A DNA stretch of 64,000 bases. Source: an uncultured Chloroflexia bacterium. GTDB taxonomy: Bacteria; Chloroflexota; Limnocylindria; Limnocylindrales; CSP1-4. The notes under the pieces are model-generated. The model did not search any database. It worked only from the letters and a program-made list of their open reading frames with translations, and was not told where the DNA came from. The stretch lies in NCBI GenBank assembly GCA_963766675.1, contig CAVYBA010000002.1, positions 1,274,806-1,338,805 on the forward strand, written 5' to 3'. This document shows positions 12,475-49,541 of this stretch, piece by piece (the first letter of the stretch is position 1; each line of letters begins with the position of its first letter). Position numbers and translations under genes: made by a program.

Positions 12475-12494
12475 CGCCTGCTCCGTGCGGTCTC

Positions 12495-12613: not shown

Positions 12614-12619
12614 GCCCGG

Positions 12620-14682: not shown

Positions 14683-14699
14683 CATCCGGTTCCCTCGAA

Positions 14700-14729
14700 C
14701 GGCCGGCGTCCCCGTTGGGATGCCGGCCG
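14700..14729 (+). terminator. hairpin after the MFS gene
   Basis: CGGCCGGC-N14-GCCGGCCG begins 18 nt after the stop codon. Confidence 0.45.

Positions 14730-21312: not shown

Positions 21313-21316
<4 letters not shown>
20291..21316 (-). CDS. dihydroorotate-dehydrogenase-like (class 1 DHOD/DPD-type TIM-barrel flavoprotein)
   Basis: 341 aa starting MTVDLTTRYLGLTLRSPIVASAAP. Motifs LELNLYHV, KLSPYYS, LVLFNRF, ATSGVHSG. Its ATG overlaps the PFOR stop (ATGA at 21313-21316). Confidence 0.8.
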
Positions 21317-24963
<3,647 letters not shown>

Positions 24964-25132
24964 ACGGACTCCCTTTGCCGGGGCGCGCTGTGCGTCGGGG
25001 ACGGACGGCGGCACGCAAGTCGGGGACGTCGGTAGTGGCGCCGGAAAATCGTCCGGCAACCGGTACCCAGCGGAATGATGCCACTCATCGCCCAACCGGG
25101 CGGAGTGCCGTTTGGCGTTCCGGCCCGGGCCA

Positions 25133-28448: not shown

Positions 28449-28467
28449 GGTCTTCCTGACGTGTCGT

Positions 28468-29780: not shown

Positions 29781-31370
29781 TCAAGCGACGGAGGCCGCAG
29801 CCCGACCCGGTTGATCGACTGACGGGTCCCCGGCCGGCGTCACGCCGGCCATCAACAGCCCGAGGATCTCGGGCGTCGCGGTCCCGCGGGTCGCCGTCCC
29901 CACGATCCGTCCCTCGTAAATGACCGCGATGAGGTCGGACAGCTCCTGGATCTCGTCGAGGTCCTCGGAGATCAGGAGGATTGCCGTCCCCGCGTCGCGC
30001 TGTTCGAGCAGGCGCTCGTGGATGTACTCGGTCGCCCCGATGTCAACGCCGCGGGTTGGCTGGGCCGCGACCAGGACCCTCGGCCGGCGGGACAGCTCAC
30101 GGGCCAGAATCAGCTTCTGGATGTTGCCGCCCGACAGGTTCTTGAGTGGCGTGTCGAGCGACGGCGTCTTGATCGAGAACCGCGTGACGAGGTCGCGGGC
30201 GTGCCTCCGCATCGCCCCGAAGTCGAGGAAGATCCCGTGCGTGAAACGCGGATCGGCGTGCTCGTGGAGGAAGACGTTCTCCTGGACGCTGAACTCGCGG
30301 ATCGCCCCGTCTCGCATCCGTTCCTCGGGGACGTAGGCAAGGCCCGCCCCGATCCGCTCGTCGAGCGACGAGCGCGTCATGTCATGCCCCTCGATCTCGA
30401 TCCGGCCAGCGGTCACGGCCCGCAGGCCGGCCAGGCACTGGGCGAGCTCGCGCTGGCCGTTGCCCGAGACACCGGCCAGCCCGACGATCTGGCCCCCGAA
30501 CACGTCGAGGCTGACCCCGCGGAGCGCCTCCGTCCCGCGGTCGCCCATCGCGTGGAGGTCGTCGATGCGCAGCCGGACGGGGTGGCTGGCCATCGGTTGC
30601 GGCGCTAGGCCCCTGACCTCGCGGCCGACCATCATCTGGGCCAGCTCTTCCTTCGTGGCGCCGGCCGTCGGGCGCGTCCCGGCCATCCGGCCGTCGCGTA
30701 GCGCGGTGACCCGGTCGCTGATCGCCATGACCTCGTGGAGCTTGTGCGAGATGAAGGTCAGGGCATGGCCCTCGCCGGCCATCCGCCGGAGCGTGACGAA
30801 CAGGTCGTCTACCTCCTGGGGGGTCAGCACGGCGGTCGGCTCGTCCAGGATGATCACGCTCGCCCCGCGGTAGAGCGCCTTGATGATCTCGACGCGCTGC
30901 TGCTCGCCCACTGCGAGCTGCCAGACATAGGCGGTCGGGTCGACCTTGAGCCCGTAGGTCAGGGACAGCTCGCTGATCCGCTTGGCGACCACGTCGAGAT
31001 CGAGGCGGAACCGGCGCGACGACGGCAGCCCGAGCGCGACGTTCTCGGCGACGGTCAGCGTTGGGACGAGCATGAAATGCTGGTGGATCATCCCGATCCC
31101 GGCCGCGATCGCGTCCGATGGGGAATGGAACGTGACGGGCGCGCCGTCGATCAGGATCTCGCCTTCGTCGGGCCGGTAGAGGCCGTAGAGCTGGCGCACC
31201 AGCGTGCTCTTGCCGGCGCCGTTCTCGCCCAGCAGGGCGTGGACTTCGCCGGCGTTCACGTCGAAGTTGACGTGGTCGTTGGCGAGCACGCCCGGGAAAC
31301 GCTTGACGATGTTGCGCATCTCGATGCGCTGGATGGCGTTCATGCGATCGGTGGTCCGTTGGCCCTTCAA
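29781..31370 (-). CDS. ABC transporter ATP-binding protein, double NBD (nucleoside/BMP-type importer)
   Basis: Two Walker A sites (GENGAGKST, GVSGNGQ), signature LAVGEQQR / LSGGNIQK, Walker B IILDEPT. ATG 31343 is an alternative start. Confidence 0.85.
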   Translation of the reverse strand: MKGQRTTDRMNAIQRIEMRNIVKRFPGVLANDHVNFDVNAGEVHALLGENGAGKSTLVRQLYGLYRPDEGEILIDGAPVTFHSPSDAIAAGIGMIHQHFMLVPTLTVAENVALGLPSSRRFRLDLDVVAKRISELSLTYGLKVDPTAYVWQLAVGEQQRVEIIKALYRGASVIILDEPTAVLTPQEVDDLFVTLRRMAGEGHALTFISHKLHEVMAISDRVTALRDGRMAGTRPTAGATKEELAQMMVGREVRGLAPQPMASHPVRLRIDDLHAMGDRGTEALRGVSLDVFGGQIVGLAGVSGNGQRELAQCLAGLRAVTAGRIEIEGHDMTRSSLDERIGAGLAYVPEERMRDGAIREFSVQENVFLHEHADPRFTHGIFLDFGAMRRHARDLVTRFSIKTPSLDTPLKNLSGGNIQKLILARELSRRPRVLVAAQPTRGVDIGATEYIHERLLEQRDAGTAILLISEDLDEIQELSDLIAVIYEGRIVGTATRGTATPEILGLLMAGVTPAGDPSVDQPGRAAASVA

Positions 31371-31456
31371 CCGGCAATCGACGTTGACCTTCGAGGCCGG
31401 GACGGGAGCGAACCGCGTGGCGGTTCGCTCCCGAGCTCCGGATGTCGGGTGTCGCG

Positions 31457-32536
31457 TTACGGATTGACCTTGACCGCGCCGCTGGTGATATCAGCGATGG
31501 CCTTGTCGCCGGCCGCCTTGGCGTCTGCCGACAGGGTGTAGCCGGGGTTGTAGGCGATCTTGAGACCGCCGTTCTTGAGTTGGAGGGTGTACGTGTCGCC
31601 ACCGAGGTGGCCCGACTGGATCTTGGTGAACATGTCCTCGAGGACGACGGTCCAGTCGTAGACCTGCGAGGCGACCACGAGGTTCGGGGCGAGCGACGAC
31701 TGGTCGGCCTGGGTGCCGAACCAGAGCACGTTGCCGGCGTCCTTGGCGGCGCCGATGGAACCGACGACCGACTGCGAGGAGCCGGTCAGGACGTCCGCGC
31801 CGTTGGTGATGTGGGCCTTGGCGGCCTCGGTCATGGCGGCCACGTCGGAGAACGATCCGGTCCACGTCTTCGAAACGGTGATCGATGGATCGGTGGCGGC
31901 CACGCCCTGGATGAAGCCATCGATGTAGGTCTTCGCGTCGCCGACTTCGACGGGGCCCGTGACGCCGATCTTCTTGGACTTGGTGAGGAGGGCCGCGAGG
32001 ACGCCGTTCACGTAGCCACCCTCTTCAGCGGCCGCGGTGTACGCATAGACATTCGGCAGGCCGAACGTGTTGACGTCGGTGCCCCAGGCGAACGAGACGG
32101 TCGGGAAGTCCTTGGCGATGTCCTGGACGCCGGCGCCGTACTGCGAGCCGTGGGCGATGACCAGGTCGAAGCCCTGCGACGCGTAGTCGCGGATGGCTGC
32201 CTGGGCGTCGGGCACGTTGAACATGTTCTCGGTGTACTTGATGACGAAGTTGGCTTCGCCGCCGGCCTTCTGCTGCTCGGCGATGAGCGCCTGGTACATC
32301 GACTGGCTGAACGCCAGGTCGGTGGTGGCGCTCGGCATGATGACGGCGACGCGGAACGGCTTGGCCGCCGCAGACGGGGATGCGGCCGGGGCAACGGAGG
32401 CCGGGGCGACGGACGCTGCCTGGGTGGGGGTGGTCGACGGCTGGGACGTTGCCGGCGCCTGGGTCGCGGAGTTGCTGCACGCCACCACGATGAGTGACAG
32501 CGCAGCTGCCGCCATGAGCGATGTCCGGAGCTTCAT
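31457..32536 (-). CDS. BMP-family (PnrA/Med-like) ABC substrate-binding lipoprotein
   Basis: Lipobox LIVVACSNS, a Pro/Ala/Ser linker, then FRVAVIMPSATTDLAFSQSMY ... GFDLVIAHGSQY ... GYVNGVLAAL. The longer ORF to 33361 runs through the permease gene and is rejected. Confidence 0.85.
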   Translation of the reverse strand: MKLRTSLMAAAALSLIVVACSNSATQAPATSQPSTTPTQAASVAPASVAPAASPSAAAKPFRVAVIMPSATTDLAFSQSMYQALIAEQQKAGGEANFVIKYTENMFNVPDAQAAIRDYASQGFDLVIAHGSQYGAGVQDIAKDFPTVSFAWGTDVNTFGLPNVYAYTAAAEEGGYVNGVLAALLTKSKKIGVTGPVEVGDAKTYIDGFIQGVAATDPSITVSKTWTGSFSDVAAMTEAAKAHITNGADVLTGSSQSVVGSIGAAKDAGNVLWFGTQADQSSLAPNLVVASQVYDWTVVLEDMFTKIQSGHLGGDTYTLQLKNGGLKIAYNPGYTLSADAKAAGDKAIADITSGAVKVNP

Positions 32537-32622
32537 GTGTCCCTTCTTGCGAGCTTGACGCAGGGTGTCTGCGCGACGATCAGGTCCGTTGATGGCGATG
32601 GGAAACCTCCCGGACGGGGCCG

Positions 32623-33552
32623 TCAGGCCACGCCGCGTTCGAATGGCTTGTCGAGCGCCGCCGGTTGGCGGGCTCGATTGGCGGAGAAGGTCAGGGCGAC
32701 GATGGTCAAGACGTACGGCAACATGACCGCGAAGTCCGATGGGATCTGGACCCCGAGGACCTGCATCCGGAGCTGGATCGCCGTGACGGTGCTGAACAAC
32801 AGCGCTCCGAGGAGGATCCCGACCGGCCGCCAGCCACCGAAGTAGACGAGGGCGACGGCGATATAACCGGCCCCGGCGGTCAGGTTCTCCTGGAACAGGT
32901 TGACGAGGGTGATCGACAACGACGCACCGGCCAGGCCGGCGAGCATCGCCCCGAGGCAGACGCACAGGTAGCGAGTTAGGTCGACGTTGACGCCGAGGGT
33001 GTCGGCGGCGGCCGGGTTCTGCCCGACGGCCCGGACCTTGAGGCCCCACGGCGTGCGCTCGAGGACGTACCAGCTCACCGGGACCAGCGCGAAGGCGACG
33101 TACACCGGCAGGCTCTGGCTGAACAGGATGTCGCCGACGTACGGCAGCCCGCTCAGGACCGGAATGCGGATCGGCTGGAAGCCGTCGACCGTCTTGACCG
33201 TCCCGACCAGGGTCTTGAACAGCAGGCTCGACAGCCCCAGACCGAACAGCGACAGCCCGATTCCGCTGATGCCCTGCTCGGCCTTGAGCGTCACGCTGAT
33301 GACCGACATCAGCAGGCCCATCGCCAGCCCCGCGATCAGCGCCAGGAGGACGCCGACCCACAGGCTGCCGGTCATGAGCGTGCCGTAGAACGCGGCGAAC
33401 GCTCCCACGAGCATGATCCCGTCGACGCCGAGGTTGAGGACGCCGGAGCGCTGGGCGAACATCTCCCCGATCGACGCGTAGAGGTACGGGGTCGCCAGGC
33501 GGATGGACGCGGCGGCGATCGCCACGATGGTGGCCAGCACGGTCTCGTTCAT
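32623..33552 (-). CDS. ABC transporter permease (BMP/nucleoside system, second permease)
   Basis: 309 aa starting MNETVLATIVAIAAASIRLATPYLYASIGEMFAQRSGVLNLGVDG. ATGA overlap with the upstream permease (33549-33552). Confidence 0.85.
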   Translation of the reverse strand: MNETVLATIVAIAAASIRLATPYLYASIGEMFAQRSGVLNLGVDGIMLVGAFAAFYGTLMTGSLWVGVLLALIAGLAMGLLMSVISVTLKAEQGISGIGLSLFGLGLSSLLFKTLVGTVKTVDGFQPIRIPVLSGLPYVGDILFSQSLPVYVAFALVPVSWYVLERTPWGLKVRAVGQNPAAADTLGVNVDLTRYLCVCLGAMLAGLAGASLSITLVNLFQENLTAGAGYIAVALVYFGGWRPVGILLGALLFSTVTAIQLRMQVLGVQIPSDFAVMLPYVLTIVALTFSANRARQPAALDKPFERGVA

Positions 33553-34694
33553 GCCGGCGTCCCTTCGGCTCCGGCGGACGGCGGAACCGCCGCGATCATG
33601 TCGACCCGGCGGGCGGCGCGACGTCTTGCCCAGTACTGCGAACCGACGACGAACAGCACGATCAGCCCGAGGATCGCCTGGATCAGTGCGGATGGGACCT
33701 GGACCGCTCGCTGCATCTTGTCCGCGCCGACCAGCAGGCTGCCGAAGATGTACGACGCAGGGATCGTGCCGAGCGGGTGGAGGCCACCGAACAGGGCGGT
33801 CACGATCCCGCTGAAGCCATAGCCGCTGGTGATCCCGTCGAGCAACCGGTGCTGGACGCCGATGACCTCGATCGCCCCGGCCACGCCCGCCAGACCGCCG
33901 GCCAGCGTGAGTGCCAGGGCCTGGTAGACGGGCACCCGGATCCCCGCGTAACGGGATGCGTCGGGGTTGAGGCCGACGGCGCGGATCCGGTAGCCGATCG
34001 TGGTCCGCCACAGGAAGACATAGGTCACGATCGCCAGCGCGAGCGCCACGAAGATGCCGGCATGAAGCAGGGTCTGCGGCACCAGCCGCATCAGCCATGC
34101 CTGCTCGGGCAGCTTCTCGGACTGGGCGAGGTACTGGCCCGAGTTCACGCCGGCCGGATCGATGAGCGGTCCCCGGATCATGAAGTTCATGAACTGGAGG
34201 GCGATCGCGTTCATCATCACCGTGGTCAGGATCTCGTTGACCCCGAGCCTCGCCTTGAGGATGCCGGGGACGAACCCCCAGGCCGCCCCCGCCAGGAACC
34301 CGAGGGTGATCGTGCCCGGGATCAGGACCCAGCCCGGCAGCGTGCGGAATTCGAGGGCGAACCAGGTGGCGGCGATGGCGCCCAGGATGATCTGGCCCTC
34401 GGCGCCGATGTTGATGACGCTCGCCCGGAACGCGATGCAGATGCCCAGCCCGACGAGCAGCAGCGGGGTCGCCTTGACCAGCGACTGGGTGATCCCCGAG
34501 GTGCTGCCGAAGGCGCCGTCGATCAGGGCGCCGTAGGCCTGCACGGGATCCGCGTTCAGGAGCATGAGCATGACCGCGCCGATCAACAGCGCGAGGCCGA
34601 CCGCCAGCAGCGGCAGGGATGCGCCGAGCGCCATGCCGACGACATCGTGACCGCGCGACGCGCCGCCCCTGGCGGTGCCGCCACCGATCGCCAT
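33549..34694 (-). CDS. ABC transporter permease (BMP/nucleoside system, first permease)
   Basis: Polytopic. Motifs INIGAEGQIILGAIAA and GYGFSGIVTALFGG. An internal ATG about 20 codons in is an alternative start. Confidence 0.85.
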   Translation of the reverse strand: MAIGGGTARGGASRGHDVVGMALGASLPLLAVGLALLIGAVMLMLLNADPVQAYGALIDGAFGSTSGITQSLVKATPLLLVGLGICIAFRASVINIGAEGQIILGAIAATWFALEFRTLPGWVLIPGTITLGFLAGAAWGFVPGILKARLGVNEILTTVMMNAIALQFMNFMIRGPLIDPAGVNSGQYLAQSEKLPEQAWLMRLVPQTLLHAGIFVALALAIVTYVFLWRTTIGYRIRAVGLNPDASRYAGIRVPVYQALALTLAGGLAGVAGAIEVIGVQHRLLDGITSGYGFSGIVTALFGGLHPLGTIPASYIFGSLLVGADKMQRAVQVPSALIQAILGLIVLFVVGSQYWARRRAARRVDMIAAVPPSAGAEGTPA

Positions 34695-34751
34695 GGCGCT
34701 ACCCGTTCACCGGCTGGGACACGACCGCACGCGCGCCATCCGCCGACGAGA

Positions 34752-35711
34752 TCATGCCGATCGCGCCTCCCGGACGATGTGCGTGCCGGCCTGGCCACGA
34801 ACCGCGTCGCGGAGATGCGGCGGATCGGTGATGATCGCCTCGCGCCCGCCGCGCTCGAGATACCAGATGCAGGCCTCGATCTTGGGCGCCATGCTGCCGG
34901 CCGCGAAGTGCGTCCCCTCGGCCAGGTAGTGCTTGGCCTCGGCGAGAGTCAGCGTGTCGATCCAGCGCTGCTCCGGCTTGCCGAAGTCGAGGGCGACCCG
35001 CTCCACTGCCGTCGCAATGACGAACACGTCCGCCCCGAGCTCGCTGGCCAGCAGCGAGCTGGCGAAGTCCTTGTCGATGACGGCCGGGACGCCGTGCAGG
35101 TTGCCCTCCGCGTCGCGGGCGACGGGGATCCCGCCACCGCCCACGGTGATCACGACGAACCCGGCAGCGGCGAGGACCTTGACCGCCGGGAGCTCGACGA
35201 TGCTGGTCGGGATCGGCGAGGCGACGACGACGCGCTTGCCCCGTCCGGCGTCCTCGACGATCGTCCAGCCGTCCGCCTGGCGCCGGGCGGCCATCTCCTC
35301 GTCGAGGAAGGAGCCGATCGGCTTGGTCGGGTGCGTGAACGCGGGGTCGGTCCTGCTGACCTCGACCTGGGTGACCACGGTCACGGCCTGCTTGTCGATC
35401 CCGCGGCGAGCGAAATCGTGGCCCATGGCCTGCTGGAGCTCATAGCCGATGGCGCCCTGCGTATCGGCGCCGCAGACGTCGAGCGGCACCTCGTGCAGCT
35501 CGTGGGCGGCCAGCTCGGAACGACGCAGGATGAACCCGACCTGGGGGCCGTTGCCATGGCCGATCGCCAGGCGCCAGCCATCCTCGACCAGCGCCGTCAG
35601 GTGGTGGCTGGTTTCCTCGAGGGCGGCCATCTGGTCCGGGACCGACTGATGGGCCTTGTCCTTGATCAGCGCGTTCCCGCCGATCGCCACGACCATGAGT
35701 GGACTCGTCAT
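34752..35711 (-). CDS. carbamate kinase
   Basis: 319 aa. Motifs VVAIGGNAL, HGNGPQVG, VITVGGGGIPV, VIDKDFAS, GSMAPKIEA. The longer ORF to 36746 overlaps the next gene and is rejected. Confidence 0.85.
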   Translation of the reverse strand: MTSPLMVVAIGGNALIKDKAHQSVPDQMAALEETSHHLTALVEDGWRLAIGHGNGPQVGFILRRSELAAHELHEVPLDVCGADTQGAIGYELQQAMGHDFARRGIDKQAVTVVTQVEVSRTDPAFTHPTKPIGSFLDEEMAARRQADGWTIVEDAGRGKRVVVASPIPTSIVELPAVKVLAAAGFVVITVGGGGIPVARDAEGNLHGVPAVIDKDFASSLLASELGADVFVIATAVERVALDFGKPEQRWIDTLTLAEAKHYLAEGTHFAAGSMAPKIEACIWYLERGGREAIITDPPHLRDAVRGQAGTHIVREARSA

Positions 35712-35812
35712 GTGCTCTTCTCCCCGGCGCAGGGCCGGCATGCGGCAGGTCGTCGGATGCGTCGCTCGCCGGCCCGGCCAACCGGCCGGGGCTCGGCGGG
35801 CGGGTGGTCGCC

Positions 35813-36790
<978 letters not shown>

Positions 36791-36828
36791 GGCAGTCTCC
36801 TTGAGGGTTCGGAGTTCGGGTGCCAGGC

Positions 36829-37782
36829 CTACTCGGCCGCGCCGAGGATCAGGGCGAGCATGCCCATCTTCAGGACGACGCCGTTGAACGCCTCGGCCCA
36901 GTAGCGCTGGTGGCGGGTGGCGTCGACGTCGGCCAGGAGCTCGTCCATCCGTGGCAGCGAGTGGAGGATGATCGAGCTGCGCTTGGCCTTCTCGCGCAGG
37001 AGCTCGCGGGTGACGCAGTACTCGGGCGGTGTCAGCCCGACCTGGTCGCTGCGTTCGACGCGCGACGCGGTGTAATCGGCCTGGACGACCGGCTCCATGT
37101 AGATGACGTCGGCCTGGTCGATGACGTCGCGGACGTCCGCGGCCTCTTCGTAGTCGACGTTGAGCGCGTCGATCTCGGCCTTGAACTCCGGCAGCAGGCT
37201 CATCTCCGGCGGCCCGACGACGATCGCCTTGGCATCGAACTGCGACAGCGCGTACAGGATCGAGTGCATCGTCCGCATCCGCATGTCGCCGACCAGCACC
37301 CAGGTCAGCCCGTCAAGCGTGCCCTTCTCGAGGAGCGTGGTGTACAGGTCGGTCAGCACCTGGGTCGGGTGCTCGCCCCAACCGTCGCCGCAGTTGATGA
37401 CCGGCACGGACGCCCACTTGGCCGCCTCGGCCGGCGCGCCCTGCTGGAAGTGACGGATCGCGATGACGTCGGCGTAGTACTCGAGCATATGGAACGTGTC
37501 CTTGATCGACTCCTGGTAGAAGTCGCCGGCGCGCGTCATCTTCGAGTCGGAGAAGCCGAGGACCTGGCCGCCCAGTCGGTGCATGGCGGCCTCGTGCGAC
37601 AGCCGCGTCCGGGTCGACGGCTGGTAGAACGCCGTCAGCATCGTCTTGTTCTTGAGCAGGTCGGTGTTGCGACGGTCGCGAGCGAAGGGGCGCAGGTCGT
37701 CGGCGACCTGGAAGACGCGAAAGAACTCGTCCCGACTGAAGTCCTTGAGGGACAGGATGTCGCGACCGAGGAAGCTCCTCAT
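36829..37782 (-). CDS. PyrB-like carbamoyltransferase paralogue with a non-canonical amino-acid site
   Basis: Carries QPSTRTRLSHE, IAIRH, GEHPTQVLTDL, GDMRMRTMHS and LHSLPRMDEL, as in ATCase catalytic chains. The region equivalent to TRVQKER reads EPVVQAD. Confidence 0.75.
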   Translation of the reverse strand: MRSFLGRDILSLKDFSRDEFFRVFQVADDLRPFARDRRNTDLLKNKTMLTAFYQPSTRTRLSHEAAMHRLGGQVLGFSDSKMTRAGDFYQESIKDTFHMLEYYADVIAIRHFQQGAPAEAAKWASVPVINCGDGWGEHPTQVLTDLYTTLLEKGTLDGLTWVLVGDMRMRTMHSILYALSQFDAKAIVVGPPEMSLLPEFKAEIDALNVDYEEAADVRDVIDQADVIYMEPVVQADYTASRVERSDQVGLTPPEYCVTRELLREKAKRSSIILHSLPRMDELLADVDATRHQRYWAEAFNGVVLKMGMLALILGAAE

Positions 37783-39169
37783 GACCTGGTGTCCTCCTGT
37801 ACGGGGTGACGGGTGATGCCCGAAAAGCAGATGACGACGGTCTCGTCTGGACGGAGCGCGCCGCTGCGCGCGAGCTGGAGCAGGCCGGCCAGACCGGCCG
37901 AACCGGTGGGATCGACGTCGATCCCGGTCGCCTCACGAGCGAGGTCGTTGGCGGCCTCGAGCGTGGGCTCGTCGACGACGAGCGACGTCCCGCCGGTGCG
38001 AAGCATTCCGGCGACGACCGCCTGCCAGTCGTAGGTCTCGTCGTCGAGGATCCCGTGGGCGACGCTGTGGGGCGTCTCCTCCCACGGCCACATGAATTCG
38101 GGACGATGGTGCGCGGCGAATGCCAGCGCCTTGTCGATCGACTCCCCGGCGGCGACGCGCTCGGCCACGCGCCCGTGGGCTCGAGCCAGCGGGAAGGCAC
38201 CCCGGGTCTGGACGGTGTCGAACCGTGGTGCATCGACGTGGATGCCCGCCGCGCCGGCGTCGGCGAAGCCGGCGATCACCGACGAGGCGAGCGCCCCGCC
38301 GCCGACCTGGATGACGACCCGGTCGATCCGCGACGGACCGTCGGACCGGCCGACCGTGGCCGCCAGTTCGAGGCCGAGCGTCTCGCCGCCTTCGACCGCG
38401 AAGGCATTGAGGTTCCCCTGGCAGGTGAACGGCAGGGCGCCCTCCGCGAGCGCATCGAGGAGCTCGAGATAGGTCGGATCGCCGGCGACCCCCGGGGTTC
38501 GCTCGCAGACGGCGAGCTCCGCGCCGAGTGCCCGCAGCCGCGCGACGACGGCCGGGTCGGCGTCGGTCGGGATGAACACGAGCAGCCGGCGACCGGCCGC
38601 CCGGGCGACCACCGCGGCGGCCAGCGCCGCGTTTCCGCAGCTGGCGATGGCCAGGGGCCGCTCGGCGCCGCTCCCGCCGACCTCGAGCTCGAGCAGGGTC
38701 CCGAACAGGTGCCGAGCCTTGTGCGACCCCGACACGTTGCCGGTCTCGTCCTTGACCCACACGCCTCCCGCGGCGGACAACCCGACGGCGTCTGACAGCG
38801 CGGCACTCCGGCGGAACGGCGTGACCCGGAAGCCATGGCCGTCGACCGCCGCGACCGCATCATCGAGCCGGCGGACCAGGCCGACGTAGTCATCGTCGCT
38901 CCAGCCGGCGGCGCGGGCCGCATGCCAGGCGTGGAACAGCTGGCGGTACGCGACGAACGGATTGGGGTCGTCGGCGCCCGTCAGGTGGTCGATCGACGAG
39001 CCGACGTGGCGGACCAGCACGTGGTCGATGCCGTCACCGTCGATCGCATTGGGGCAGACGAGCGGGACCGGCGTGCCATCGGCCGGCTGCATCCCGCAAC
39101 CGGCGCAGGCGAACCAGGTAGGTGGCCGCTCGGCCATGGCGGGCCGTCCCGTTGCCTCGCGCCCGACGG

Positions 39170-39173
<4 letters not shown>
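37779..39173 (-). CDS. fold-type II PLP enzyme, threonine-synthase-like
   Basis: SGSHKAR (PLP lysine), [21 protein letters not shown], and an N-terminal Cys-rich stretch FACAGCG...LVCPN. ATGA overlaps at both ends (39170-39173 and 37779-37782). Confidence 0.7.
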
Positions 39174-40669
<1,496 letters not shown>

Positions 40670-40769
40670 GTCAATCCTCAGATCACAAGGAACCGAGCGA
40701 GGGACGGCCGCTCGGAAGACGGATCACGCTTGCGGGGGGACGAACACCGCGTGCTGTCTGGCTGCGGCG

Positions 40770-40808
40770 ATGCTAGCATGCCGCAACGGTTCTGTAATGT
40801 TGTTTACA
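40770..40808. promoter_or_regulatory. palindromes in the AT-richer core of the 336-nt divergent control region
   Basis: ATGCTAGCAT (40770-40779, perfect 10-bp palindrome) and TGTAA-N6-TTACA (40793-40808, CRP/FNR-family-like geometry). Confidence 0.3.
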
Positions 40809-41004
40809 CTAACTGGAAGGAATACGTAACCTTACCTGTACCGAAGTTCGGCTTCGGTAGAGCCAATCGGTACGGAAACGAGCGGGCTGAACGGCCCCCT
40901 TCCCGGGCCGAATAGCGGGTGGTCATCCGCCCCCCGACCGGCGATAACTCAACACCAGGCTGCGGCGGCCCCGTCCTCCATCTCGCGGCCAGCGAAGGCA
41001 GGTT

Positions 41005-43638
<2,634 letters not shown>

Positions 43639-43661
43639 TCGCGACGGGGAGGACGACGACG

Positions 43662-44684
43662 GTGTCAGCGATCACTCCGGGTCTGGTCTGCGCCCACCAC
43701 CACCTCTATTCGGCGCTCGCCCGGGGCATGCCCGCGCCGCCCAGGGTGGCTGCCAGCTTCCAGGAGATCCTCGAGCAGGTCTGGTGGCGGCTCGACAGCG
43801 CCCTCGACCTCGAGATGATCCGCTGGTCGGCCATGCTCGGCGCCCTCGAGGCGCTCGAGAGCGGGACGACGGCCATTGTCGACCATCACGAATCCCCCAA
43901 CGCCATCGAGGGCAGTCTCGACGTCATCGCCGAGGCCTGCGCGGAGGTCGGCGTCCGGTCGATGCTGGCCTACGGCATCACCGATCGCCACGGTCCCGAC
44001 GGCGCACGACGTGGGCTGGCCGAGAACGAGCGATTCATCCGCGCCGGCGGGCACGGATTGGTCGGCATCCACGCCGCGTTCACCTGCTCCGACGACTCGC
44101 TCGCGGCCGCGGCCGGGCTCGCCGCCGACCTGGGCGTCGGCGTCCACGTGCACGTCTGCGAGGGTGCCGGCGATGCCGACGCGCCGCGCCGGCTGGCGGG
44201 CCTCACGCGGGATGACTGGCTCCTCGCCCACTGCGTCCACCTGCCCACCGACCATGACCTGCGCGGCACGATCCTCCACAACCCCATGTCGAACCTGAAC
44301 AACGCGGTCGGCTATGCGAACCCGGCCCGGTTCGCCAACCCGGTCGCGCTGGGCACGGACGGGATCGGCGGGAACGTGCTGGAGGCGTTCCGGCTGGCCT
44401 ACGTCATGGAGCGATCCGTCGACGTCACGTGCGGCCCCGACACCGCCTGGGGCTGGCTGGCCACCGGCTGGGACCTGGTGCCCGAGGCCCGCAAGGACCG
44501 GGTCACCTGGTCCTACGACCCGATGGACCCGTGGCACGTCGCCTTCACCCCCGGAATCCGGCCCATGGAGGTGAGCGTCGGCGGCGAGGTCGTCCTTCGC
44601 GACGGCAGCCCGACCCGTGTCGACGCCACGGAGATCCGCGCCAAGGCCCGCGAGCAGGCCGCCCGCCTCCACGCCCGGCTCTAG
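43662..44684 (+). CDS. ssnA: SsnA-like amidohydrolase (N-terminally short form)
   Basis: Blocks PGLVCAHHHLYSALARG, VWWRLDSALD, ESGTTAIVDHHESP, HNPMSNLNNAVGY and LGTDGIG match my recollection of E. coli SsnA. GTG 43662 lies behind GGGGAGGA. Confidence 0.8.
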   Translation: MSAITPGLVCAHHHLYSALARGMPAPPRVAASFQEILEQVWWRLDSALDLEMIRWSAMLGALEALESGTTAIVDHHESPNAIEGSLDVIAEACAEVGVRSMLAYGITDRHGPDGARRGLAENERFIRAGGHGLVGIHAAFTCSDDSLAAAAGLAADLGVGVHVHVCEGAGDADAPRRLAGLTRDDWLLAHCVHLPTDHDLRGTILHNPMSNLNNAVGYANPARFANPVALGTDGIGGNVLEAFRLAYVMERSVDVTCGPDTAWGWLATGWDLVPEARKDRVTWSYDPMDPWHVAFTPGIRPMEVSVGGEVVLRDGSPTRVDATEIRAKAREQAARLHARL

Positions 44685-44697
44685 GAGGGGCCTCCCG

Positions 44698-47600
44698 ATG
44701 TCCGATCGGTTCCACCCGATCTCGATGGAGCAGCTCACCCACTGGGTGTTCATCGAGCTCGACCGGAAGGACGCTGTCTTCAACATCCCGCGGTCGGCGT
44801 TCTTCGTGCCGCGGGCCGACCATCGATACCGGATCCGGGAACACGGCGTCGACCTCGATGCGCCGTTCGGCGTGGCCGCCGGCCCGCATTCGCAGATGGC
44901 CCAGAACATCGTCGCGGCGTGGCTGGCCGGCGCCCGTGTCATCGAGCTCAAGACCATCCAGACCCTCGACGAGCTCGACGTCAACAAGCCGTGCATCGAC
45001 GTCACGGACGAGGGCTACAACGTCGAGTGGTCGCAGGAGCTGCGCGTCCACCAGTCGTTCGACGAGTACCTGCGAGCCTGGGTGCTGATCCACGCCCTGC
45101 ACCGCCGGTTCGGCTGGCCCGGCGAGACGCCCGGCGTCCTGTTCAACATGAGCGTCGGCTACAACCTCGAGGGCATCCTCAAGCCCAACGTCCAGTGGTA
45201 CTTCGACGCGATGGCCGACGCCTCCGCGTACCTCCCGGCATACGTCGACATCGTCGCGGCGTACGAGCCGTCGGTGCGCGACCTGGCTATCCCATCGCGG
45301 CTGTCGGACACGATCACCCTGTCCACGATGCATGGCTGTCCGCCGGACGAGATCGAGCGGATCGCCGAATACCTGCTCGTCGACAAGGGGCTCCAGACCT
45401 CCGTCAAGTGCAATCCGACGCTCCTCGGGCCCGACCTGGTTCGCGGAATCGTCAACGACGACCTCGGCTTCCACGACGTGCCGATCCCCGACGAGGCGTT
45501 CGGGCACGACCTCAAGTACGCCGACGCGGTCCCGATGTTCCACCGTCTCCAGCGGGTCGCGGCCGGTCGAGGTCTCGGCTTCGGGCTCAAGCTGTCCAAC
45601 ACGCTCGAGGTCGAGAACTGGCGGACCGTGTTCGATCGCGACCCGACCATGTACCTGTCCGGACGTCCGCTCCACGCGGTGACGGCGAACCTCGCCGCCC
45701 GGCTGGCCGACGAGTTCGATGGCGGTCTGCCGCTGTCGTTCGCCGGCGGCGCCGACTGCTTCAACGTCGCCGACCTGCTCCGGTCGGGGATGAGGACGAT
45801 CACGGTTGCCTCGGACCTGCTCAAGACGGGCGGCTACCTGCGCCTCCTCCAGTACTCAGAGAAGACCGACGAGGCGTTCGACGCGGTCGGCGCCAGTTCG
45901 ACCACCGACTTCATCGTGCGATCGGCCGCGGCCGGCGGGTTCGCCGGCGCCACGGGCGACGATCCGGCGACGATCGCGGCGTGCGCCGGCTTCAACGTGC
46001 GCCGCTATGCCGACGCGGTCCGCCACGACTGGCGCTATCGCAAGGCGTCGTTCCGGATGGACCACTCGAAGACCCTGCGAGGCCTCGGCTCGTTCGACTG
46101 CATCAAGGCGCCGTGCGTCGACACGTGCCCCGTCGACCAGGCCGTCCCGCTGTACATGGGCGCGCTGCGTCGCGGCGAACTGGCCGAGGCCGTCCGGATC
46201 ACCCGCGAGGACAACCCCCTGCCCTCGATCCTGGGTCGGGCGTGCGACCACCTGTGCGAATCGACCTGCGTCCGGACGCACCTGGACGAGCCACTGGCCA
46301 TTCGGCACATCAAGCGGTTCGTGATGGACCACGAAACGACCGCCGATGCCGGTGACGTGGCGCCGCCGCCCGTCGGCTTGCGCGTCGCGATCATCGGGGC
46401 CGGCCCGGCGGGACTCGCGGCGGCTCGCGAGCTGGCCCGTGCCGGCGTGACCGTCACGATCTTCGAAGCGCAGCCGTACGCCGGCGGCATGGTCGGCGGG
46501 GCAATCCCCGAATACCGGCTGCCGCAGGCGCGACTCGACCAGGACCTGGCCGTCCTGGCGCGCCTGGGCGTCGAGATCCGCTACGGCATCCGCGCCGGGG
46601 TGGACATCACGATCGAGGGGCTCCGCGCCGACGGGTATGCCGCGATCTTCGTGGCCGTGGGAGCGCAGGCGGCCAGGCGGCTCGACCTGCCCGGCGAGGA
46701 CGCGGCCGGGATCGTCGACGGAGTGACGTTCCTGCGGGGCGTTCGCGAAGGGCGGCCGATCCCGCTCGGCGGCCGGGTCGGCGTGATCGGTGCCGGCGAC
46801 ACCGCGATGGACTGCGCTCGTTCGGCGCGGCGCCTCGGTGCGGGGACCGTTTCGCTGGTGTACCGCCGGACGATCGATCAGATGCCGGCCGATCCCGAGG
46901 AGATCCACGACGCGATCGCCGAGGGCGTCGAGATCGTCGAGCTCGCCAGCCCGGCGAGCCTGCGGATCGCGGACGGCCGGCTGGCCGCCCTGGTCTGCAC
47001 GCGGACCGCCTACCGCGGCGAACGGGATGCCACCGGCAGGAAGGTCCCGGTCGACGTCCCGGGCTCGGAATTCGAGATCGGGCTCGACACGCTCATCGTT
47101 GCCATCAGCCAGCATTCGGCGCTCGGCGTCTTCGGCGACGCGCCGCCGGCCCTGACGCCGGCGCGGTACATCGCGGTGGACCCGGTCACGTTCGAGACCT
47201 CGATCCCGGGCGTCTACGCCGGCGGCGACGTCGCGGCGCACGGGCCGTCCTCGATCGTCCGGGCCGCGGCCGACGGCAAGCGCGTCGCCGCGGCGATCGC
47301 CGCGGCCCACGGCCTCACCAGGCCGGCCGCCGCCACCGTCGACGATCCGATCGACGTGCCGGCCCTGGTCGTCCGCCGCGCCCGGCGCGAGTACCGCGTC
47401 CCGATCCGCGCGTCCGGGCTCGACGCCCGCGCCGGATTCGACGAGACCGCGCTCGGGTACACCCCGGACGAAGCCCGGGCCGAGGCGTCGCGCTGCCTCG
47501 ACTGCCACCAGATCTGCAGCCTGTGCGTCGGCGTCTGTCCGAACCTGGCCCTGATGACGTACGAGTCCGCCCCGATCTCGGTCGACCTGCCGACGCTGGT

Positions 47601-48099
47601 CGTCCGCGACGGCGCCATTGAGCCGACGGGTCCGCGCCGCCCGTTTGCCGCCGAGCAGCGGCTCCAGATCGCGGTCCTGACCGACTTCTGCAACGAATGC
47701 GGCAACTGCGTGACCGCGTGCCCGACCTCTGGCTCGCCGTACCGCGACAAGCCGCGACTCTATCTCGACCGCGCGGACTTCCTGGCGCAGGCGTCGAATG
47801 CGTTCATGCCGCTGGGCGACGGCGTCATGGAGGGCCGTTTCGATGGCCGGACCCACCGGATCGAGGTGGACGACCGGATCGAATACCGCGGTCCGGCGTT
47901 CCGCGCGACCCTGGACCCGAGGACCCTGGAGCTGATCGAGGCGACACCGACCGGCGCCGACGACGGGGAGGAGCTCACGCTCGAGCCCGTCGCGGTCATG
48001 TCAACCCTGCTGGCCGGACTGCGCGGATCGATGCCGCACATCCCCGTGGCGGCCGCCGGTGGAACGTTCGTCGCCGAACCGGGGCCGACCGCCGGGTGA
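44698..48099 (+). CDS. ygfK: YgfK-like Fe-S flavoprotein (DPD-like barrel plus GltD-like FAD/NAD(P) domain plus ferredoxin-like clusters)
   Basis: Blocks FGVAAGPHSQMAQNIVAAWLAGARVIELKTIQ, NVEWSQE, MSVGYNLEGI, LSTMHGCPPDEIERIAEYLL, IIGAGPAGLAAARELARAG and CNECGNCVTACP match my recollection of E. coli YgfK. ATG 44698 lies behind AGGAGGGG. Confidence 0.85.
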   Translation: MSDRFHPISMEQLTHWVFIELDRKDAVFNIPRSAFFVPRADHRYRIREHGVDLDAPFGVAAGPHSQMAQNIVAAWLAGARVIELKTIQTLDELDVNKPCIDVTDEGYNVEWSQELRVHQSFDEYLRAWVLIHALHRRFGWPGETPGVLFNMSVGYNLEGILKPNVQWYFDAMADASAYLPAYVDIVAAYEPSVRDLAIPSRLSDTITLSTMHGCPPDEIERIAEYLLVDKGLQTSVKCNPTLLGPDLVRGIVNDDLGFHDVPIPDEAFGHDLKYADAVPMFHRLQRVAAGRGLGFGLKLSNTLEVENWRTVFDRDPTMYLSGRPLHAVTANLAARLADEFDGGLPLSFAGGADCFNVADLLRSGMRTITVASDLLKTGGYLRLLQYSEKTDEAFDAVGASSTTDFIVRSAAAGGFAGATGDDPATIAACAGFNVRRYADAVRHDWRYRKASFRMDHSKTLRGLGSFDCIKAPCVDTCPVDQAVPLYMGALRRGELAEAVRITREDNPLPSILGRACDHLCESTCVRTHLDEPLAIRHIKRFVMDHETTADAGDVAPPPVGLRVAIIGAGPAGLAAARELARAGVTVTIFEAQPYAGGMVGGAIPEYRLPQARLDQDLAVLARLGVEIRYGIRAGVDITIEGLRADGYAAIFVAVGAQAARRLDLPGEDAAGIVDGVTFLRGVREGRPIPLGGRVGVIGAGDTAMDCARSARRLGAGTVSLVYRRTIDQMPADPEEIHDAIAEGVEIVELASPASLRIADGRLAALVCTRTAYRGERDATGRKVPVDVPGSEFEIGLDTLIVAISQHSALGVFGDAPPALTPARYIAVDPVTFETSIPGVYAGGDVAAHGPSSIVRAAADGKRVAAAIAAAHGLTRPAAATVDDPIDVPALVVRRARREYRVPIRASGLDARAGFDETALGYTPDEARAEASRCLDCHQICSLCVGVCPNLALMTYESAPISVDLPTLVVRDGAIEPTGPRRPFAAEQRLQIAVLTDFCNECGNCVTACPTSGSPYRDKPRLYLDRADFLAQASNAFMPLGDGVMEGRFDGRTHRIEVDDRIEYRGPAFRATLDPRTLELIEATPTGADDGEELTLEPVAVMSTLLAGLRGSMPHIPVAAAGGTFVAEPGPTAG

Positions 48100-48149
48100 C
48101 GACGCCCCGAAACCGGCGCCTGCGCGGGTTCGGACCACGGGCCGCGGCC

Positions 48150-49541
48150 TCAGCCGGACGCGAGCAGCGTACGAGCGATGCGGTTGTGGTCCTCGAGGAC
48201 CATTGGCAGGTCGACCGTCACCAGCTGCCCATCGCGGACGACCGCTCGGCCGTGGACGTAGGTGAACGCCGCCGACGCCGGCGCGCAGAAGATCACGGCG
48301 GCAACCGGGTCGTCGAGGGCTCCGGCGAACCCTGGCGCGCGCAGGTCGATCGCGAAGAAGTCGGCGCAGTGACCGACGGCCAAGGCGCCGATGTCGTCGC
48401 GTCCGAGGACAGTCGCGCCACCGAGCGTCGCGAGCTCGAGCACCTCCCGCGCCGACATTGGCGCCCGGGCGTCCGGCTCGGCCGGGCTGCGACGGCGATC
48501 CTCGGCGAGTGCCACCCGGGCCAGCAGCATCGCCTGGCGCGCCTCCGCGAGCAGGTTCGACCCGTCGTTGCTGGCCGACCCGTCGACGCCGAGACCCACC
48601 GGCACGCCGGACGCCCGCATTCGCCCGACGGGCGCGATGCCCGATGCCAGCCGCATGTTGCTGGTCGGGCAGTGGGCGACGCCGGTGCCCGCCCGGGCCA
48701 ATGCGTCGACCTCGCCCGGCTCCAGGTGGACGCCGTGCGCGAACCAGACGTCGGGACCCAGCCAGCCGAGCTCAGCCATGTACTCGACCGGCCGGCGGCC
48801 GACGGTCTCGAGGCAGAACCGCTCCTCGTCGAGCGTCTCGGCCAAGTGCGTGTGGAGCCGGACGCCGAGCGACCGGGCGAGCGTGGCGGTCTCGCGCATC
48901 AGGTCGGACGTGACCGAGAACGGTGAGCAGGGCGCTAACCCGATCCGGAGCATCGACCCCGCCGACGGGTCGTGGAACGTCTCCACCACCCGCTGCGAAT
49001 CCCGGAGGATCGCCGCCTCGTCCTCGACACACCGGTCCGGCGGGAGCCCGCCGCGCGACTCGCCGAGCGACATGCTCCCGCGCGTGGCGTGGAACCGGAG
49101 GCCGATCTCGGCTGCCGCCTCGATCGTGTCGTCGAGCGTGCTGCCGTTGGGGTAGAGGTACAGGTGATCGGAGCTGGTGGTGCAGCCGGACAGGGCCAGC
49201 TCCGCCAGCCCGGTCAGTGTCGACACACGGACGCCCTCCGGCGTCAGCCTCGCCCAGACTGGGTACAGCGCGCGCAGCCAGTCGAACAGCGCCGCGTCCT
49301 GGGCGGCCGGGATCGCCCGGGTCAGCGTCTGGTACAGGTGGTGATGGGCGTTGACGAGCCCCGGCAGCACGACGTGATCGCGCAGGTCCAGCACCTCGTC
49401 AGCCGTGTCTGGGAGCTCGGCCGTTGGTCCGACCTGCGTGATGGTCCCGTCGACGGCGAACAGGCCGCCACCGGCGAGCTCGCGACGCTCTGCGTCGTGG
49501 GTGACGAGGACCGTCGCGTTGCGGACCAGCAGGCTGGTCAT
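48150..49541 (-). CDS. ATZ/TRZ-type amidohydrolase, 8-oxoguanine/guanine-deaminase-like
   Basis: Motifs LLVRNATVLVT, PGLVNAHHHLYQTLTRA, HTHLAET, HCPTSNMRLASG, GVDGSASND. Confidence 0.75.
   Translation of the reverse strand: MTSLLVRNATVLVTHDAERRELAGGGLFAVDGTITQVGPTAELPDTADEVLDLRDHVVLPGLVNAHHHLYQTLTRAIPAAQDAALFDWLRALYPVWARLTPEGVRVSTLTGLAELALSGCTTSSDHLYLYPNGSTLDDTIEAAAEIGLRFHATRGSMSLGESRGGLPPDRCVEDEAAILRDSQRVVETFHDPSAGSMLRIGLAPCSPFSVTSDLMRETATLARSLGVRLHTHLAETLDEERFCLETVGRRPVEYMAELGWLGPDVWFAHGVHLEPGEVDALARAGTGVAHCPTSNMRLASGIAPVGRMRASGVPVGLGVDGSASNDGSNLLAEARQAMLLARVALAEDRRRSPAEPDARAPMSAREVLELATLGGATVLGRDDIGALAVGHCADFFAIDLRAPGFAGALDDPVAAVIFCAPASAAFTYVHGRAVVRDGQLVTVDLPMVLEDHNRIARTLLASG

Follow-up and report, generated by a model that had tools for sequence, protein, structure and literature searches.

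A reductive, oxygen-independent pathway of urate degradation was reconstituted biochemically in 2025 from gene clusters of Escherichia coli and Clostridium (Li et al. 2025, PMC12507026; Liu et al. 2025, bioRxiv 10.1101/2025.04.24.650524). According to the two studies, urate is converted to 2,8-dioxopurine by XdhD-YgfM or XdhAC, 2,8-dioxopurine is reduced by YgfK and SsnA yields ureidomethylhydantoin. HyuA then forms 2,3-diureidopropionate, from which YgeW frees carbamoyl phosphate for ATP formation by YqeA, YgeY strips the second ureido group and YgeX converts 2,3-diaminopropionate to pyruvate and ammonia. The C. sporogenes XdhAC, which has a fused architecture, was shown in 2025 to be a 2,8-dioxopurine dehydrogenase. 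The ureido intermediates were assigned as (R) (Liu et al., bioRxiv 10.1101/2025.04.24.650524), and YgeX accepts both isomers according to the 2025 pathway work. Published accounts present the pathway as belonging to gut bacteria and other anaerobes, with enrichment among Bacillota and in host-associated habitats, and a commentary regards it as restricted to obligate or facultative anaerobes. The present analysis concerns positions 29781-49541 of a 64,000-nucleotide stretch of DNA from an uncultured Chloroflexia bacterium; this whole stretch is termed the window. The region is likely to encode a transport and catabolism system for urate and oxidised purines. Its route would be the reductive 2,8-dioxopurine one, as a variant characteristic of soil Chloroflexota, Actinomycetota and Armatimonadota in which two transcarbamylases and a pair of pyridoxal phosphate (PLP) enzymes would serve the lower steps.

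The window cluster resembles that of E. coli (ygeW-ygeX-ygeY-hyuA-yqeA ... ygfK-ssnA-ygfM-xdhD; the 'yanthine'/2,8-dioxopurine cluster) in its YgfK, adjacent SsnA relative, molybdenum (Mo) enzyme of the xanthine dehydrogenase (XDH) family, YqeA-type carbamate kinase and YgeW-related transcarbamylase, with purine deaminase and transporter genes alongside. In contrast to E. coli, the Mo enzyme is of the fused XdhAC/TIGR03311 type without YgfM, SsnA is a 340-aa short form, HyuA, YgeY, YgeX, YqeB, YqeC and MocA are lacking, and an aspartate transcarbamylase (ATCase)-like second transcarbamylase and two other fold-type-II PLP enzymes are added. The import system is of the ATP-binding cassette (ABC) type with a BMP-family binding protein, unlike the UacT/XanQ permease of E. 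coli. The urate clusters of C. sporogenes and C. difficile (XdhAC, UacX, UacY) share with the window a fused Fe-S and Mo enzyme and the absence of a FAD subunit, and a UacX-type, dihydroorotate dehydrogenase (DHOD)-like reductase takes the place of YgfK in 10 loci related to the window. The clostridial clusters, however, retain HyuA, YgeY and YgeX and require SelD and YqeB/YqeC; clusters of the window type have none of these nearby. A preliminary description of the region had treated the pathway as a genetic lead; the link to urate and purine breakdown stands, while its biochemistry has since been reconstituted as described above.

The Chloroflexota and Actinomycetota SsnA neighbourhoods of Li et al. 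(sequence-similarity network, F420 'luciferase-family' variant) represent the same kind of environmental cluster. Neighbours were scored there by Pfam family alone (PF00185 as 'YgeW', PF00291 as 'YgeX'), so that the PLP pair, the ATCase-like enzyme and the lack of HyuA and YgeY were not distinguished. Chloroflexota were also stated to lack YgfK and UacX (Li et al., PMC12507026), whereas the window and several Chloroflexia metagenome-assembled genomes carry YgfK, a 602-aa mini-YgfK or UacX. The survey of Liu et al. used a threshold of at least four of the seven C. sporogenes proteins, and this version of the cluster, without HyuA, YgeY and YgeX and with too divergent a carbamoyltransferase, would probably escape detection. 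In the literature, neither the PLP pair nor the ATCase-like enzyme was found described, nor was a variant without HyuA and YgeY, in keeping with the earlier view that the gene combination is uncharacterised; it is apparently an undescribed variant of a known pathway and not a new kind of system. Its importance would lie in a second, environmental version of the reductive urate pathway, beside that of gut bacteria and other anaerobes, that is widespread in soil bacteria. If the assignments given below are true, a role would be assigned to two large, so far uncharacterised PLP families, a transcarbamylase specificity not defined before would be established and the ATP yield per urate could rise; annotation of purine and nitrogen turnover in soil could become more complete, and engineered urate-degrading probiotics would have more enzyme options.

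Gene layout and predicted purine ring enzymes

The G+C content of the window is approximately 70%, and raw lists of open reading frames (ORFs) are crowded with shadow frames. Genes between 29781 and 49541 were mapped by third-position GC (GC3) frame analysis together with profile searches (NCBIfam, Pfam). Nine packed minus-strand genes (40669-29781) are divergent from three plus-strand genes (41005-48099), and a deaminase gene is convergent with the latter. Stop and start codons overlap as ATGA at 39170-39173, 37779-37782 and 33549-33552, the last being common to the two permease genes. Spacers of 23 nt and 13 nt separate XDH from SsnA and SsnA from YgfK respectively, and the shorter contains GGAGGGG. 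GC3 frames, profiles and sequence confirmed this layout as given in the preliminary description. The features are as follows.

39170-40669, minus strand: PLP1, fold-type-II PLP enzyme, cysteine synthase/cystathionine beta-synthase (CBS)-like, uncharacterised
37779-39173, minus strand: PLP2, fold-type-II PLP enzyme, threonine synthase/racemase/dehydratase-like, uncharacterised
36829-37782, minus strand: ATCl, ATCase-like carbamoyltransferase with an altered second-substrate site
35813-36790, minus strand: OTCl, carbamoyltransferase of the ornithine transcarbamylase (OTC)/acetylornithine transcarbamylase (AOTC)/YgeW group, by NCBIfam and comparison with E. coli YgeW
34752 to about 35711, minus strand: carbamate kinase, likely start the ATG at 35711
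33549-34694, minus strand: ABC permease subunit 2 (NF047929, 202 bits, under the cut-off)
32623-33552, minus strand: ABC permease subunit 1 (NF047928, 199 bits, under the cut-off)
31457 to about 32536, minus strand: BMP/PnrA-family substrate-binding protein (Pfam PF02608, 134 bits)
29781-31370, minus strand: ABC ATPase with two ATP-binding domains, start uncertain (TTG at 31370 or ATG at 31343)
40670-41004: divergent intergenic control region between the PLP1 and XDH starts
41005-43638, plus strand: XDH, fused 2Fe-2S/molybdopterin hydroxylase of the XdhAC type (TIGR03311)
43662-44684, plus strand: short SsnA-type amidohydrolase (NF005540, below the cut-off)
44698-48099, plus strand: YgfK Fe-S flavoprotein (TIGR03315)
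48150-49541, minus strand: 8-oxoguanine deaminase (NF006055), convergent with YgfK

Related loci (designated by L numbers) were collected in a PLP1-anchored search, in which the nearest relative, with 91% identity, was a Ca. Limnocylindrales metagenome-assembled genome. The best 80 loci were kept with 10-kb flanks; 41 of these have full flanks. Genes were assigned to a reference set by best-reciprocal matching, and cluster types were derived from the assignments.

The XDH protein (877 aa) scored 946 bits against TIGR03311, 'selenium-dependent xanthine dehydrogenase' (cut-off 830), and 220 bits against the XdhD-type model TIGR03313 (cut-off 1102); the earlier label XdhD-like is therefore replaced by XdhAC type. 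Pfam domains Fer2, Fer2_2, hammerhead and MoCoBD_1/2 were found in a fused 2Fe-2S and molybdopterin architecture. Both sets of Fe-S cysteines are retained. So are GGFGGKE, FRGFG and a Glu at the position where E. coli XdhA and XdhD have a conserved Glu, and we take these three to be the equivalents of E802, R880 and the catalytic Glu of bovine XDH. The window contains no FAD subunit for this enzyme, and we know of no electron donor of an XdhAC-type enzyme. XDH is proposed as a 2,8-dioxopurine dehydrogenase, possibly acting also as a xanthine dehydrogenase.

The SsnA-like protein of 340 aa scored 254 bits against NF005540 (cut-off 444) over profile positions 57-340 of 444, the next family reaching 83 bits, and is 32% identical to residues 54-438 of E. 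coli SsnA. It lacks approximately 55 N-terminal residues and carries several internal deletions, and the motifs HxH, DHH, HxHxxE, HN and GTDG are retained. The earlier SsnA-like label thus holds as regards the best family and the motifs, but not as regards length and score. The same short form occurs in four other genomes (L003, L020, L034 and L026), and close homologues with 67-90% identity lie beside YgfK or mini-YgfK in nine of 10 loci, the tenth being a 5.7-kb fragment. A pseudogene was ruled out, the form being conserved with intact motifs. Short SsnA is a conserved subtype and the proposed opener of the reduced purine ring.

YgfK was recognised as such by TIGR03315 (848 bits, cut-off 835), in agreement with its earlier assignment, and is 35% identical to residues 1-1004 of E. 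coli YgfK. It comprises FMN/dihydropyrimidine dehydrogenase (DPD)-like, GltD-like FAD/NAD(P)H and ferredoxin domains (Pfam Fer4_20 and Pyr_redox_2) and is the proposed 2,8-dioxopurine reductase. The mini-YgfK of 602 aa (L082, 4307-6115; L082 is the same locus as L003) matches residues 4-479 and 939-1041 of the window protein. It consists of the N-terminal FMN/DPD-like and C-terminal ferredoxin domains; the GltD-like FAD/NAD(P)H module that lies between them in YgfK is missing, which points to another electron donor. Homologues of mini-YgfK with 41-46% identity occur in L017, L025, L031, L034, L045, L051, L055, L076 and L079.

The 8-oxoguanine deaminase, described earlier as 8-oxoguanine/guanine-deaminase-like, matched NF006055 over its full length with 683 bits (equivalog cut-off 532). 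Full-length homologues with 50-54% identity are present in L028, L043, L052, L058 and L059, and L074 and L080 have partial ones. Genes for adenine deaminase and 8-oxoguanine deaminase both recur beside the clusters.

In the proposed scheme, the BMP-type ABC system would import a purine or nucleoside and the deaminase would convert 8-oxoguanine to urate as a feeder step. XDH, YgfK and short SsnA would then take urate through 2,8-dioxopurine and its dihydro form to a ring-opened ureide. The hydantoin would be opened by short SsnA hydrolysing twice at the same carbon, or by an enzyme encoded elsewhere in the genome. Import and degradation of a purine or ureide, with ring chemistry by the Mo-hydroxylase, YgfK and SsnA, had been put forward in the preliminary description and is now supported by family scores, the 2025 pathway and cross-phylum synteny. 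Family membership and synteny support the assignments of ring chemistry, 8-oxoguanine feed, purine or nucleoside import and ATP formation from carbamoyl phosphate. The term fermentation, with its implication of anaerobiosis, would go beyond what can be read from this DNA about the source organism.

Related loci across bacterial phyla

The PLP1 family is large, with at least 8000 matches, and at least 598 matched stretches in GTDB species-representative genomes encode a relative. Among the 80 loci kept, PLP1 is 63-91% identical across phyla, of which at least eight are labelled: Chloroflexota, Actinomycetota, Acidobacteriota, Gemmatimonadota, Eisenbacteria, Planctomycetota, Myxococcota and Proteobacteria. 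In the loci with full flanks, PLP2 lies beside PLP1 in 40 of 41, XDH adjoins PLP1 in 34, and XdhAC-type XDH and SsnA are both present in 33. The neighbourhood comparison called for at the outset has thus shown the gene set to recur. Every full-flank locus with ATCl also carries XDH (19/19), and 12 of these 19 carry carbamate kinase.

In an Armatimonadetes contig (L083), the genes for PLP1, PLP2, ATCl, OTCl, carbamate kinase and XDH are co-directional in this order, consistent with one operon. A Chloroflexia locus (L082) has PLP1, PLP2, ATCl, OTCl, carbamate kinase, XDH, short SsnA and mini-YgfK as a compact eight-gene unit between tRNA-synthetase and RelA genes. These gene orders, together with the synteny across phyla, indicate that the adjacency of the two operons in the window is not due to chance.

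Three types of cluster were distinguished. The ATCl type, to which the window belongs, comprises 32 loci, with OTCl in 21 and carbamate kinase in 20; a YgeY-type M20 hydrolase and YgeX were found in none of the 32 and a hydantoinase in one. Some loci of this type, for example L085, have ATCl and carbamate kinase without a second transcarbamylase. The true-YgeW type comprises 14 loci whose YgeW is 45-67% identical to that of E. coli; a YgeY-like hydrolase is present in 10, a dihydropyrimidinase or hydantoinase in five and ATCl in none. The third type consists of core-only operons, XDH-SsnA-PLP1-PLP2, with flanking genes that look unrelated (L013, L019, L042 and L066). ATCl and the YgeY-like M20 hydrolase exclude each other (0/32 against 10/14 true-YgeW loci; Fisher p=2e-7), the exclusion of ATCl and HyuA being weaker (p=0.007), in tests uncorrected for phylogeny or transfer of whole clusters. 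OTCl and a true YgeW were never found together among the related loci, and a YgeY-type hydrolase occurred solely alongside a true YgeW. A YgeX homologue was present in three of the 80 loci, and YqeB, YqeC and MocA in none.

The reductase beside XDH and SsnA varies. In 51 such loci it was YgfK in eight, mini-YgfK in eight, a UacX-like DHOD in 10 and an F420 luciferase-like protein in 15, and none was seen in 11. The window cluster uses the NAD(P)H-type YgfK and not the F420 luciferase-like reductase of many relatives.

The PLP1-PLP2 pair stands alone in L004, L060, L067, L068 and L073. When translations of the neighbours of these orphan pairs and of the core-only operons were read by eye, with no profile search, no further conserved partner was seen; sensor kinases, secreted proteins and an acyl-CoA dehydrogenase were noted. 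Several recurrent ORF families obtained by all-against-all clustering were discarded as shadow ORFs of high-GC genes. A Chloroflexota contig (L087) has its PLP2 gene in three fragments and its second transcarbamylase gene in two (11497-13022 and 14010-14986), possibly through frameshifts from long-read assembly errors or through decay of the cluster.

Lower-half enzymes and alternative readings

ATCl scored just above the cut-off of TIGR00670 (246 bits against 237) and below that of NF002032 (216 against 263). The carbamoyl-phosphate site and R167 are retained, whereas D/Y stand in place of K83/K84, P in place of R229 and V in place of Q231, and an insert of approximately 12 aa is present. Numbering is that of E. 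coli PyrB, whose reference sequence agreed with the known numbers at all residues checked. The substitutions are identical in 15 of 15 correctly translated orthologues, the alignment around the insert being somewhat ambiguous. ATCl therefore lacks the full residue set of PyrB, which comprises K84, R167, R229 and Q231 with the carbamoyl-phosphate site, and the substitutions and insert indicate that the side-chain pocket is not an aspartate pocket. An ordinary PyrB was ruled out by these active-site residues and the conserved operon context.

OTCl (325 aa) remained under the cut-off of every NCBIfam model: 257 bits for OTC (cut-off 306), 256 for AOTC (288) and 191 for YgeW NF005538 (453); the YgeW model TIGR03316 gave 175 (500). 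It lacks several insertions of the approximately 396-aa YgeW architecture, and its best PDB matches were Pyrococcus furiosus OTC (217 bits), AOTCase (204) and YgeW 3q98 (178). It is nevertheless 36% identical to E. coli YgeW (E=5e-57), with which it shares motifs absent from E. coli ArgI and PyrB, namely KSW(G/A)P (DVWVSMG in ArgI) and a GNxYMREV insert. The earlier description as YgeW-type is upheld by this identity and these motifs but not by the model scores, OTC and AOTC being equal or better. Profile checks proposed for the YgfK, SsnA, YgeW and XdhD families accordingly placed YgfK above its cut-off, and the SsnA, YgeW and XdhD models under theirs. The carbamate kinase cleared NF009007 (393 bits, cut-off 266) and is 50% identical to E. 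coli YqeA.

Arginine deiminase, agmatine/putrescine carbamoyltransferase and the anaerobic allantoin/oxalurate routes follow a like logic, in which phosphorolysis of a ureido group yields carbamoyl phosphate and carbamate kinase makes ATP. Unlike these, the window has two different transcarbamylases in one operon, of which only ATCl meets a specificity cut-off, and barely (TIGR00670), and the proposed substrates are two ureido groups of one C3 skeleton.

PLP1 matched PF00291 with 44 bits, and its profile matched cysteine synthases in the PDB (E=5e-21); helical extensions are present at both the N- and C-termini. Its structure model (pLDDT 76) was closest in fold to O-acetylserine sulfhydrylases and CBS (TM approximately 0.75, 21-27% identity), and K112, STGN at 140-143 and the Gly-rich phosphate loop SATGSAGT are invariant. 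PLP2 matched PF00291 more strongly (134 bits) and among PDB sequences matched threonine synthase alone (E=6e-13); it has an N-terminal Cys cluster. Its model (pLDDT 81) was closest to threonine synthase, serine and aspartate racemase, threonine deaminase and serine dehydratase, and K152, SCGN at 178-181 (the SxGN loop) and QVGGG are invariant. The PLP2 start overlaps the PLP1 stop in an ATGA, which suggests translational coupling.

Both enzymes share fold type II (PF00291) and the pathway neighbourhood with YgeX, which is present where PLP1 and PLP2 are absent; YgeX is one gene, whereas the window has two coupled genes, and there is no orthology. BLASTP against YgeX gave E=0.011 and 0.016, no ammonia-lyase model occurred among the NCBIfam matches, and YgeX lay outside the top 50 structural matches of both models. 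The two PLP enzymes had been called unrelated; this is correct in that they are not YgeX orthologues (BLASTP E~0.01), but they have the same fold type as YgeX. Having kept the catalytic Lys and the alpha-carboxylate loop, PLP1 and PLP2 should act on free alpha-amino acids, and as we read the pathway, albizziin and 2,3-diaminopropionate are its sole intermediates of this kind.

For the lower half we infer the following functions. OTCl would take the YgeW step and ATCl would be a phosphorolytic substitute for the YgeY hydrolase. Both ureido groups of 2,3-diureidopropionate would leave as carbamoyl phosphate, from which carbamate kinase would form ATP, giving up to two ATP per urate and not one. 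The coupled PLP1 and PLP2 would replace YgeX in converting 2,3-diaminopropionate or albizziin to pyruvate and ammonia. Since the ureido intermediates are (R) and YgeX takes both isomers, a racemase-like PLP2 feeding an L-specific, CysK-like beta-eliminase PLP1 is reasonable; a heteromer is just as possible in view of the translational coupling of the two genes. In loci with ATCl only, the pathway would be completed by a beta-elimination that releases urea from albizziin. ATP formation through carbamoyl phosphate and a non-canonical lower half had both been anticipated in the preliminary description and accord with the family scores, the 2025 pathway and synteny.

Several points weigh against assignment of the region to a reductive urate pathway. 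For the hydantoin-opening (HyuA) step, neither the window nor the compact L082 cluster offers a candidate: HyuA, YgeY, YgeX, YgfM, YqeB and YqeC, reported earlier as not seen, had no homologue across the 64-kb window by tblastn, and Pfam scans of its other called genes gave no hydantoinase, M20 peptidase or SelD-type protein. SsnA and OTCl fall under their family cut-offs, and the two PLP enzymes exceed the need of the YgeX step. YqeB, YqeC and SelD genes are not nearby though the XDH family is named selenium-dependent. A single carbamoyltransferase is present in L085, L048, L050, L058 and L080, and L013, L019, L042 and L066 have no carbamoyltransferase, YgfK, UacX or luciferase-type reductase within 10 kb, so that the assignment of steps is not unique. 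The substrate of XDH (xanthine, urate or another purine) and the regiospecificity of a urate to 2,8-dioxopurine conversion cannot be told from sequence, and protein functions in general are predicted here from sequence, structure models and synteny. The co-occurrence tests carry the limit given with them.

A bolder form of the proposal, in which the lower branch is distinct and its chemistry undescribed, is put forward only tentatively. It would dispense with hydantoinase and YgeY, use a bifunctional short SsnA, yield two ATP per urate, release urea from albizziin by beta-elimination in single-transcarbamylase clusters, employ a heteromeric PLP enzyme (racemase and beta-eliminase) for YgeX, and be widespread in presumed-aerobic soil and groundwater bacteria of many phyla.

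Among the alternatives, PLP1 and PLP2 might serve maturation or cofactor supply of the Mo hydroxylase, providing sulfur or selenium in place of YqeB, YqeC and SelD, with the remaining genes still degrading purines. The most conserved unit is indeed the four-gene XDH-SsnA-PLP1-PLP2 with unrelated flanks (L013, L019, L042, L066), the two maturation genes YqeB and YqeC occur in 0/80 loci despite the 'Se-dependent' XDH family, and PLP1 is both cysteine-synthase-like and unusually conserved at 63-91% across phyla. However, PLP1-PLP2 accompanies YgeW, M20 and carbamate kinase without XDH or SsnA within 10 kb in L008 and L056, and the pair also stands alone in the five loci listed above. In the window, L082 and L083 the pair is moreover promoter-proximal and shares one operon with the transcarbamylases and carbamate kinase, and YgeX is missing where the pair is present. 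Known Mo-cofactor sulfuration uses fold-type-I desulfurases. A maturation role is considered unlikely.

It is still less probable that the two operons are independent, the minus-strand one importing and degrading a carbamoylated, citrulline- or albizziin-type amino acid beside a purine hydroxylase operon by chance. The operons are divergent in the window and not co-transcribed, and the PLP pair with a carbamoyltransferase/carbamate kinase module can occur without XDH (L008, L056, L023, L037). Against this stand the presence of XDH in all 19 full-flank loci with ATCl, the co-directional genes of L083 and L085, the association across at least eight phyla, and the proven role of the homologues YgeW and YqeA in the urate pathway.

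Fermentation of orotate or another pyrimidine, which the preliminary description had also raised, would make YgfK a dihydroorotate- or dihydropyrimidine-type reductase, SsnA dihydroorotase-like and the PyrB-like enzyme a source, in reverse, of carbamoyl phosphate for ATP formation by carbamate kinase. YgfK and the alternative UacX-type reductases are DPD/DHOD-like and ATCl does clear the TIGR00670 cut-off, but ATCl lacks K84, R229 and Q231, binders of the aspartate beta-carboxylate. The most constant neighbour belongs to the XDH family and has active-site residues of the purine type, the clusters repeatedly include purine deaminases and two amino-acid PLP enzymes would be left without a role, so that this reading is very improbable. 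Least probable is biosynthesis of a non-proteinogenic diamino or ureido amino acid (diaminopropionate/albizziin type) by the SbnA/CysK-like and ThrC-like enzymes and the transcarbamylases: although CysK-like enzymes make diaminopropionate precursors in other systems and a weak SbnA-family match exists (27 bits, NCBIfam), the context offers no non-ribosomal peptide synthetase, ligase or exporter, catabolism is indicated by carbamate kinase, XDH, SsnA and the purine deaminases, and the L082 cluster is embedded among housekeeping genes.

Intergenic region, importer and neighbouring genes

The divergent intergenic region (40670-41004) is AT-richer in a core at approximately 40780-40860 and contains the palindrome TACCGAAG-ttcgg-CTTCGGTA; the PLP1 leader carries a terminator-like hairpin (40693-40715). 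A riboswitch or other leader RNA was rejected, with no Rfam match in the window at gathering score, in seven related loci or in 40620-41050 at E<=1; the leader folds no better than shuffled sequences (z=-0.6). A sigma-70 promoter scan of the region gave no consensus match. In Chloroflexota loci, a conserved motif lies between the divergent XDH and PLP1 genes, GGCCAtcTGGCCCTA ... CTGCTGTTGGTCCCG ... CCGTTCGG, or in its fuller form GGCCAtcTGGCCCTA ... TAGG ... CTGCTGTTGGTCCCGaCC ... CCGTTCGGaCC. It is found approximately 40-170 nt upstream of PLP1 in L003, L005, L015, L018, L021, L024, L027, L032, L038, L039, L046, L062 and L071; in the window only its second half is recognisable, at approximately 40880-40920. 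The motif matched nothing in Rfam, and its consensus RNA fold was not convincing (-0.67 kcal/mol, with one compensatory pair); it is probably an operator or promoter.

The ABC ATPase matched NF047930 best among NCBIfam models (505 bits, cut-off 670) and has homologues in three of the 80 related loci. For the BMP protein, the best solved homologue was AtzT (6pi5, E=1e-23), and homologues with 54-57% identity adjoin the cluster in L028, L040, L074 and L080. The order permease-permease-binding protein-ATPase is unusual for an ABC system. A strong hairpin at approximately 31385-31413, GGGAGCGAACCGC-cac-GCGGTTCGCTCCC, lies between the binding-protein and ATPase genes and may confer differential mRNA stability. 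In L083, the transporter genes upstream of PLP1 (7735-9951) encode two binding proteins of the NMT1/THI5 type and not BMP. The NMT1 family gave its name to the NMT1 RNA motif, a reported xanthine/urate riboswitch; no NMT1-type RNA was detected in L083.

An aminotransferase gene of class I/II (28468-29643, minus strand) starts 137 nt past the end of the ATPase gene and lies directly upstream of a gene (26052-28469, minus strand) for a thiamine-diphosphate enzyme of approximately 805 aa, which is distantly transketolase-like (best PDB match E=9e-19) and reached no NCBIfam cut-off. Homologues of the thiamine-diphosphate enzyme (70-71% identity) and of the aminotransferase (51-53%) occur beside the PLP/carbamoyltransferase cluster in the Acidimicrobiia loci L037 and L041, and the two may be an accessory part of the system. 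A LysR regulator (25133-26050, minus strand) and a 1260-aa pyruvate:ferredoxin oxidoreductase (PFOR; 21313-25095, minus strand) are encoded a few genes from the cluster. With pyruvate as the end product of the pathway, PFOR was considered as a conserved electron source and rejected; it occurs in none of the 80 related loci, and the link is probably coincidental.

Further away, a 625-aa protein unrelated to the cluster (193-2070, minus strand) combines DUF6851 with a helical-bundle domain of the vanadium-chloroperoxidase type. Genes for an F420H2-dependent quinone reductase (57553-57963, minus strand), a DinB/mycothiol-transferase-like protein (8684-9187, plus strand) and an MMPL transporter (15786-17342, plus strand) suggest an F420-using organism, consistent with Chloroflexota or Actinomycetota.

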